Shown piece by piece: positions 6,719-7,797 of a DNA stretch of 64,000 bases. The position numbers and the translations under genes were made by a program. Each line of letters opens with the position of its first letter. Positions within the stretch are counted from its first letter, which is position 1. A model generated the notes under the pieces. The model did not search any database. It saw only the letters and a program-made list of their open reading frames with translations, and had not been told where the DNA came from. This DNA is from Escherichia coli (GTDB lineage: Bacteria > Pseudomonadota > Gammaproteobacteria > Enterobacterales > Enterobacteriaceae): the NCBI RefSeq assembly GCF_001677475.2, contig NZ_CP015229.1; one strand, 5' to 3'.

Positions 6719-7797
6719 GCACCGTGACTATTACCGATTTAGCGCGTGAAAACGTCCGCAACCTGACGCCGTATCAGTCGGCGCGTCGTCTGGGCGGTAA
6801 TGGCGACGTCTGGCTGAACGCCAACGAATATCCCACAGCCGTGGAGTTTCAGCTTACTCAGCAAACGCTCAACCGCTACCCGGAATGTCAGCCGAAAGCG
6901 GTGATTGAAAATTACGCGCAATATGCAGGCGTAAAACCGGAACAGGTGCTGGTCAGTCGTGGCGCGGACGAAGGTATTGAACTGCTGATTCGCGCTTTTT
7001 GCGAACCGGGTAAAGACGCCATCCTCTACTGCCCGCCAACGTACGGCATGTACAGCGTCAGCGCCGAAACCATTGGCGTCGAGTGCCGCACAGTGCCGAC
7101 GCTGGACAACTGGCAACTGGACTTGCAGGGCATTTCCGACAAGCTGGACGGCGTAAAAGTGGTCTATGTTTGCAGCCCCAACAACCCGACAGGGCAACTG
7201 ATCAATCCGCAGGATTTTCGCACTCTGCTGGAGCTAACCCGCGGAAAAGCCATTGTGGTTGCCGATGAAGCCTATATCGAGTTTTGCCCGCAGGCATCGC
7301 TGGCTGGCTGGCTGGCTGGCTGGCTGGCGGAATATCCGCACCTGGCTATTTTACGCACACTGTCGAAAGCTTTTGCTCTGGCGGGGCTTCGTTGCGGATT
7401 TACGCTGGCAAACGAAGAAGTCATCAACCTGCTGATGAAAGTGATCGCCCCCTACCCGCTCTCGACGCCGGTTGCCGACATTGCGGCCCAGGCGTTAAGC
7501 CCGCAGGGGATCGTCGCCATGCGCGAACGGGTGGCGCAAATTATTGCAGAACGCGAATACCTGATTGCCGCACTGAAAGAAATCTCCTGCGTGGAGCAGG
7601 TTTTTGACTCTGAAACCAACTATATTCTGGCGCGCTTTAAAGCCTCCAGTGCAGTGTTTAAATCTTTGTGGGATCAGGGCATTATCTTACGTGATCAGAA
7701 TAAACAACCCTCTTTAAGCGGCTGCCTGCGAATTACCGTCGGAACCCGTGAAGAAAGCCAGCGCGTCATTGACGCCTTACGTGCGGAGCAAGTTTGA
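6715..7797 (+). CDS. hisC: Histidinol-phosphate aminotransferase HisC (360 aa; contains in-frame AGWL-AGWL repeat)
   Basis: ORF translation; class-II aminotransferase; overlaps hisD stop. Confidence 0.95.
7299..7326 (+). repeat. Tetranucleotide microsatellite (GCTG)6 inside hisC coding sequence
   Basis: gctggctggctggctggctggctggcgg read directly; encodes [10 protein letters not shown]. Confidence 0.9.

Follow-up and report, generated by a model that had tools for sequence, protein, structure and literature searches.

An in-frame CTGG repeat expansion in hisC of Escherichia coli and its probable origin by slippage

The hisC gene in the window (the whole 64-kb stretch of E. coli DNA analysed here) carries within its coding sequence a perfect tandem repeat of a 4-nt unit, and its product is four residues longer than the reference enzyme. 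The lengthened tract raises three questions: (i) whether it is a genuine, heritable allele, (ii) how, and how often, such an allele arose, and (iii) whether the enzyme still works. We consider it very likely that a native (CTGG)4 tract has grown to (CTGG)7 by slippage, giving a heritable hisC allele whose enzyme is probably functional. The relevant features of the window are as follows.

4339..4462 (+): his leader, a match to Rfam His_leader
4470..11554 (+): hisGDCBHAFI operon, eight ORFs, all full length
6715..7797 (+): hisC coding sequence (ORF), histidinol-phosphate aminotransferase, 360 aa
7264..7275 (+): codons of D184-E-A-Y187, an invariant motif on the strand preceding the insertion (sequence, 80-species comparison)
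7299..7328 (+): tetranucleotide tract (GCTG)7.5, equivalent to (CTGG)7 at 7300-7327; 18 nt and 4.5 copies in reference E. coli
7299..7310 (+): the 12 extra nt (three units) relative to four-unit alleles; a nominal position, as placement within the tract is arbitrary
7300..7329 (+): repeat-encoded codons 196-205; LAGWLA, residues 196-201, in the reference
7366..7368 (+): codon of Lys218 (K214 of the 356-aa enzyme), in the invariant SKAF motif (sequence comparison)

The gene lies between hisD and hisB, downstream of the his leader. Its protein cluster carries Pfam PF00155 (PLP fold-type I), and phmmer aligns residues 1-360 of the product to residues 1-356 of PDB 1fg3_A (E = 6e-236) with one 4-residue gap. 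The Asp and Tyr of the DEAY motif bind PLP in fold-type I aminotransferases, and K214 is reportedly the PLP Schiff-base lysine in E. coli HisC structures. D184, Y187, and K218 are all present in the 360-aa protein and are invariant across 80 species; Lys218 is 13 residues past the end of the repeat-encoded peptide. The equivalent lysine of Mycobacterium tuberculosis HisC is identified as Lys232 in PMC4703992. Directly upstream of the his leader, at about 3715-4030, is a yefM-yoeB toxin-antitoxin pair (PF02604, PF06769), with gene calls taken from locus L001, which is identical to the window.

On the plus strand, 7299-7328 reads G(CTGG)7C, preceded by GCATC and followed by CGGAATAT. Tandem Repeats Finder reports a period of 4, 7.5 copies, 100% matches, zero indels, and a score of 60, and places no other period-4 array in the 64-kb window; a direct scan of the window likewise found no other period-4 tract of 14 nt or longer. 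Chance cannot produce a perfect 30-nt tract of this period. A preliminary description of the locus had counted six GCTG units, which is a miscount: 7299-7326 spans 28 nt, or seven units, and the ten residues encoded need 30 nt, or 7.5. Its central claim, that a repeat in hisC has expanded, stands on the perfect period-4 tract, the 360-aa ORF, and the comparison with complete genomes given below.

The reference state is clear. K-12 BW25113 hisC is 1071 nt long and encodes 356 aa, with (CTGG)4 and a single LAGWLA; the preliminary description gave this protein length and the single LAGWLA correctly. The E. coli HisC sequences in the PDB (1fg3, 1fg7, 1gew, 1gex, 1gey, 1iji) are also 356 aa. Alignment of the window with K-12 hisC DNA leaves a clean 12-nt gap in the tract with identical adjacent flanks, and at the protein level +LAGW and P287S (K-12 numbering) are the sole differences. 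The proposed 12-nt, in-frame expansion that adds four residues thus corresponds to three extra CTGG units relative to K-12. The gene had also been called essential as well as biosynthetic; the second term is right, and the first applies only conditionally, to growth without histidine.

We compared the window with 5,426 complete RefSeq E. coli genomes. A whole-gene query found no match above 98.0% identity in the 5,416 genomes that matched, and the best match spans 1071 nt. A 151-nt query centred on the tract matched 5,153 complete genomes, all at 91.4% identity or less, a value equal to 12 gap positions plus at least one mismatch. Among 60 listed matches, taken at even steps down the ranking, 59 are full-length and each spans 139 nt, 12 nt shorter than the query; the last is partial. 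The seven-unit allele was found in none of the about 5,150-5,400 matching complete genomes, and the short spacing is present in 80 of 80 Enterobacterales representatives; the longer protein is thus not the normal state, a possibility that the preliminary description had allowed for. The 356-aa S287 protein without the insert is abundant: a protein collection indexes it in 16,919 blocks. The nearest four-unit hisC to the window haplotype found is that of FDAARGOS_1337, at 10 SNPs, and no direct four-unit progenitor was found among the sequences compared.

Miscalls are possible in short tandem repeats, and indel errors elsewhere in the gene are clear in some public HisC entries, so the extra 12 nt might be a sequencing or assembly error in a single assembly. 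We give this reading next to no credence. The exact 360-aa protein is public (ANO89798.1, EFI6953699.1, EKA1089924.1, and ELW6972387.1; UniRef100 n=20) and is present on 14-20 contigs, one of 5.50 Mb, from independent submissions and runs. Logan contig ERR10434813 is identical to the window across 7,083 nt, and +12 also occurs in other lineages (NCBI, ENA, Logan). Given the deposited protein, the many contigs, and the identical Logan contig, the allele is not an artefact.

The window bears an O36-type O-antigen cluster, which identifies the carrier as a clone of O36 E. coli. The cluster is AT-rich, at about 15800-30600, with GC down to 0.30, and a JUMPstart element lies at 30574-30612 (minus strand). 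Matching clusters are annotated with wzy ('O36 family O-antigen polymerase'), gndA, and wcaM. A 20-kb O-antigen query is covered to at least 80% in only 8 complete genomes, of which strain E06 is best, at 98.0%. E06, with the closest O36 cluster, is 33 SNPs from the window in hisC.

Other lengths of the tract also exist. For several backgrounds we derived the protein expected from each allele of 1-10 units and searched a 15-billion-protein collection for exact matches; allele DNA was fetched for the products found, and the flanks were compared. All fetched alleles differ by whole units with flanks unchanged, and 3, 4, 5, and 7 units were read as DNA. The 3-unit frameshift product is on 17-20 contigs and the 3-unit allele on at least three haplotypes. 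The 5-unit frameshift product of the K-12 background was found in 22 contigs or sequencing runs, which are near-identical and about 31.5 kb. Because all share this length, they probably represent one strain family, a K-12-derived His- laboratory strain. In the 5-unit K-12-type loci L005-L007 (SRR9076272, SRR13494116, and SRR13494202), hisC is otherwise that of K-12, with 0 SNPs. The 5-unit products end in at least four different out-of-frame tails (the K-12 type and at least three more in cluster listings), and a 2-unit product (P0041) is known as protein from cluster listings.

The in-frame +LAGW form was found on four of the nine protein backgrounds tested, including those of K-12 (P0017; HGE5624279.1 and HGE5647134.1), D131E (P0167; WP_431709158.1 and others), and the O18/B2 type (P0168). 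Exact look-up did not find it on the O157, MS20649, FDAARGOS_1337, E06, or P0003 backgrounds, and found no 1-, 6-, 8-, 9-, or 10-unit products on the few backgrounds that were testable. Likewise, exact matching in the collection, where the window haplotype is represented by about 20 isolates, found no 5-, 6-, or 8-unit products of that haplotype, and the collection holds no 8-unit derivative of the K-12-type seven-unit allele. A metagenome scan for GCATCG with five or more CTGG units after it gave six matches, none of them hisC; these are unrelated microsatellites.

Exactly one complete genome has (CTGG)3, that of the K-12 laboratory strain OV2 (Edinburgh), whose annotation lists hisC as a pseudogene with a frameshift, and none has the K-12-type 5-unit allele. 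The published genotype of OV2 reportedly includes 'his', an auxotrophy that may correspond to the (CTGG)3 lesion. The tract is the same as in the window, but in OV2 a one-unit contraction destroys the frame, unlike the in-frame expansion. The result goes beyond the preliminary description in two respects: the +12 change recurs on several haplotypes, and the tract is a general hotspot for gain and loss of units.

Two further kinds of unusual HisC were seen among public entries. Many 'frameshifted' proteins break right after EYPH, in a CCTGG (Dcm) site at 7341-7345, 13 nt past the tract (P0019, P0025, P0027-P0029, P0032, P0034, P0036, P0038, P0040, P0042, and P0045), and several regain the frame later (354-356 aa). 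These breaks resemble errors of sequencing or assembly (perhaps long-read miscalls linked to methylation) more than real alleles. A 441-aa HisC from Salmonella enterica serovar Agona (P0048, on a single contig) repeats about 82 internal residues in tandem (EFQLTQQ...ETIGVER), a duplication that could be real or a misassembly.

How often the +12 change arose can be judged from the flanks. Compared pairwise over 1,055 flanking positions, the four seven-unit haplotypes show 19-33 differences; upstream of the tract the first differing site is met at 49-94 nt, and downstream at 26-176 nt. Complete genome AH21H052 has a four-unit hisC at 0 SNPs from the D131E-type seven-unit gene; the O18 type has 0 SNPs relative to the four-unit strain O18, and the K-12 type has 2 relative to K-12. 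With four distinct haplotypes, three of which have four-unit twins at 0-2 SNPs, four independent events are the economical account, and these sequence comparisons make it likely that at least four +12-nt events occurred. Alternatively, a single ancient +12 event could have been moved to other hisC haplotypes by short gene-conversion patches. The his-O-antigen region is rich in recombination, and the D131E-type seven-unit hisC is embedded in two different mosaics of flanking sequence, which differ by 30 SNPs within hisD, hisB, and hisH but by none in hisC. However, in every pair the patch must fit between the nearest differing sites, which requires patches of roughly 75 to 270 nt (both flank distances plus the 28-nt tract), possible but strained. 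The existence of the three four-unit twins, and a tract that otherwise mutates repeatedly (3- and 5-unit alleles are on several haplotypes), also argue against one origin, which we regard as quite improbable.

The two mosaics are those of loci L117 and L118, which both carry the D131E-type seven-unit hisC and whose 30 SNPs cluster outside the gene. Either the surroundings of the allele have recombined, or this hisC haplotype has undergone another, independent expansion.

Slipped-strand mispairing in replication, as at the lacI (CTGG)3 hotspot, is the most likely cause of the expansion. The lacI site is described in PMC12606429 and PMC11603525 as a textbook hotspot, whose one-unit gains and losses, attributed to Streisinger slippage, dominated the earliest spontaneous mutation spectrum obtained by sequencing. 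At hisC, one-unit slips in either direction shift the frame and inactivate the gene, and such alleles occur. Three added units are the smallest expansion that preserves the frame, and they duplicate LAGW in a connector of the protein. A seven-unit allele, its enzyme probably working, may then escape purifying selection and persist in the O36 clone. The change from four to seven units could be made in one step (+3) or stepwise, via a +1 His- frameshift followed by a +2 in-frame pseudo-revertant. A single +3 slip on the 18-nt (4.5-unit) tract leaves just 6 nt pairing; 6- or 8-unit alleles, as stepwise intermediates, were absent from the few backgrounds that could be tested.

Replication orientation may also contribute. 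In a Pseudomonas putida lacI reporter, as outlined in PMC3485313, CTGG insertions outnumber deletions in a gene head-on to replication, where CTGG is in the leading-strand template, and the reverse holds for the other orientation. GC skew of the plus strand is negative throughout the window, which indicates that this strand is the leading-strand template and that hisC is head-on. If the P. putida result carries across species, hisC would be in the insertion-prone orientation. A structure-driven mechanism was also considered and set aside: in single-strand folding, hairpin propensity was no greater than in shuffled controls (z = -0.6 for the CTGG strand and +2.3 for the CCAG strand).

The resemblance to lacI (CTGG)3 (Farabaugh, Schmeissner, Hofer & Miller 1978, via PMC12606429, PMC11603525, and PMC3485313) is close. 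As these sources present it, the same CTGG unit is in a coding region, whole units are gained or lost by Streisinger slipped mispairing, and one-unit changes inactivate by frameshift. The wild-type hisC tract is longer (4.5 copies versus 3), and the hisC variation is in natural isolates, whereas the lacI alleles described there are selected laboratory mutants. The +3-unit expansion of hisC keeps the ORF open, and the passages of the lacI sources cited describe no such expansion. A literature search on hisC with tetranucleotide, CTGG, or histidine auxotrophy returned nothing on the hisC tract; PMC12472240, in the section concerned, uses hisC as an O145 pangenome marker, unrelated to the seven-unit allele. 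Within the searchable literature the site and its allele series appear undescribed; the mechanism is known and not new.

The tract itself is not a conserved element. Among the 80 Enterobacterales species, only E. coli and E. albertii have the 18-nt repeat; it measures 17 nt in two other genera and 6-12 nt in most. Since synonymous differences interrupt the tract in most of these species, the microsatellite is an accident of codon choice. The protein spacing is another matter, as the DEAY-to-SKAF segment is 33 residues in 80 of 80 species representatives (75-98% identity) and in 119 further 90%-identity cluster representatives. Given this constancy in close relatives, the insertion breaks an otherwise invariant spacing. 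The homologue search gave only relatives at 85% identity or above, and lengths for distant HisC proteins were taken from PDB homologue spans. The segment aligned to 47 residues of the variant is 41-49 residues in solved HisC/CobD homologues and 43 in wild-type E. coli, and from these spans the fold appears to tolerate length change here at greater evolutionary distance.

We ran AlphaFold2 on the 360- and 356-aa forms with one common 81-sequence alignment, with the following results.

Mean pLDDT: 81.6 for the 360-aa variant, 81.7 for the 356-aa form
pTM: 0.81 for the 360-aa variant, 0.83 for the 356-aa form
Connector, 360-aa variant: an 11-residue helix, 196-206
Connector, 356-aa form: one helical turn, 197-199; the connector, which joins strands 180-187 and 206-211, has 18 residues
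Block mean pLDDT, 191-200: 51 for the 360-aa variant (residues 189-196 below 50), 75 for the 356-aa form

The 360-aa model matches 1fg3 with a TM of 0.88-0.90. In the models the fold is retained, and the insert is predicted to lengthen the helix in the connector that joins the D184/Y187 strand to the K214 strand. Compared with the PDB enzymes, this is the same protein but for the four inserted residues and P287S, encoded at the same operon position with D184, Y187, and K214 kept; its connector gains four residues and, in the models, forms an 11-residue helix in place of a single turn.

Addressing the third question, the 360-aa HisC is probably still functional, as we infer from the intact operon, the retained fold, the restriction to in-frame forms among expansions of this size, and the allele frequency. 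Seven-unit alleles are on about 30 contigs, on four backgrounds, from natural isolates and metagenomes, and are about as frequent as the frameshifts of one unit more or less, many records of which trace to laboratory K-12 strains. One-unit frameshifts should be generated far more easily, and similar frequencies therefore imply that selection against the in-frame allele is much weaker. Persistence alone is no proof of function, as frameshift alleles, presumably null, also persist in some isolates.

The protein could instead be inactive or strongly hypomorphic, making the lineage auxotrophic or bradytrophic for histidine, a defect that a nutrient-rich host niche would tolerate. The strictly conserved spacing in Enterobacterales points this way, as do the fall in local model confidence, the position of the insert near the PLP-lysine strand, 13 residues before the catalytic lysine, and the natural frameshift alleles, which imply that His- E. 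coli occur. We nevertheless consider loss of function unlikely. The expansions found at this size are all in-frame, and exact look-up on the few testable backgrounds found neither 6-, 8-, and 10-unit products nor the 1-unit in-frame deletion; the global fold is kept in the AlphaFold2 model, members of the wider family have 41 to 49 residues in this segment, and the rest of the his operon is intact.

Repeats within an ORF whose unit number sets the frame are also the basis of the tetranucleotide contingency loci of Haemophilus and Neisseria, and the lengthened tract might similarly be a reversible, phase-variation-like switch of histidine prototrophy. Seven units would be expected to slip more than four, and one-unit changes, which frameshift the gene, are known on four-unit backgrounds. 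However, the collection contains neither 6- nor 8-unit derivatives for the window haplotype, nor an 8-unit one for the K-12-type seven-unit allele, and no within-lineage on/off variants were found. The hisC tract is much shorter than those of the known contingency loci, lies in a housekeeping biosynthetic gene, and is not conserved beyond E. coli and E. albertii; in contrast to those loci, the seven-unit form of hisC keeps the frame open and seems to be stable within the clone. A contingency function for the lengthened tract is thus highly improbable.

A broader version of this idea seems to us a long shot, if a somewhat better one. Here (CTGG)n of hisC would act as a natural, reversible auxotrophy switch, with lineages becoming His- by one-unit change in histidine-rich hosts and returning by exact reversion or compensating gains. 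Seven-unit alleles would be footprints of such cycles (+1 then +2) and would now switch faster than four-unit alleles. We prefer the reading in which slippage has produced an in-frame allele with a probably functional enzyme.

The lacI CTGG hotspot thus has a natural, longer counterpart in a core biosynthetic gene of E. coli, and public genomes hold 2-, 3-, and 5-unit frameshifts there together with a recurrent +3-unit in-frame expansion. Pseudogene calls in hisC and 356/360-aa length variants, as met in annotation and cgMLST schemes, can be explained simply by mutation. For the O36 lineage the extra 12 nt serve as a convenient marker of the clone, and the site is a natural system for studying tetranucleotide slippage and the tolerance of the HisC fold for a one-turn insertion.

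Several other repeats and RNA elements were predicted in the window. A 96-nt unit present in 1.9 copies (93% matches) at 35902-36089 overlaps an Rfam naRNA4 (CssrE) match at 35961-36031 and is probably a REP/BIME-type intergenic repeat. A 23-nt tandem repeat (CTCGACAGGAAATTGGCTATCAA) occurs in 2.4 copies with 93% matches at 57230-57285. Further Rfam matches are an algC RNA (40502-40551, minus strand) and a second JUMPstart element (55029-55066, minus strand).
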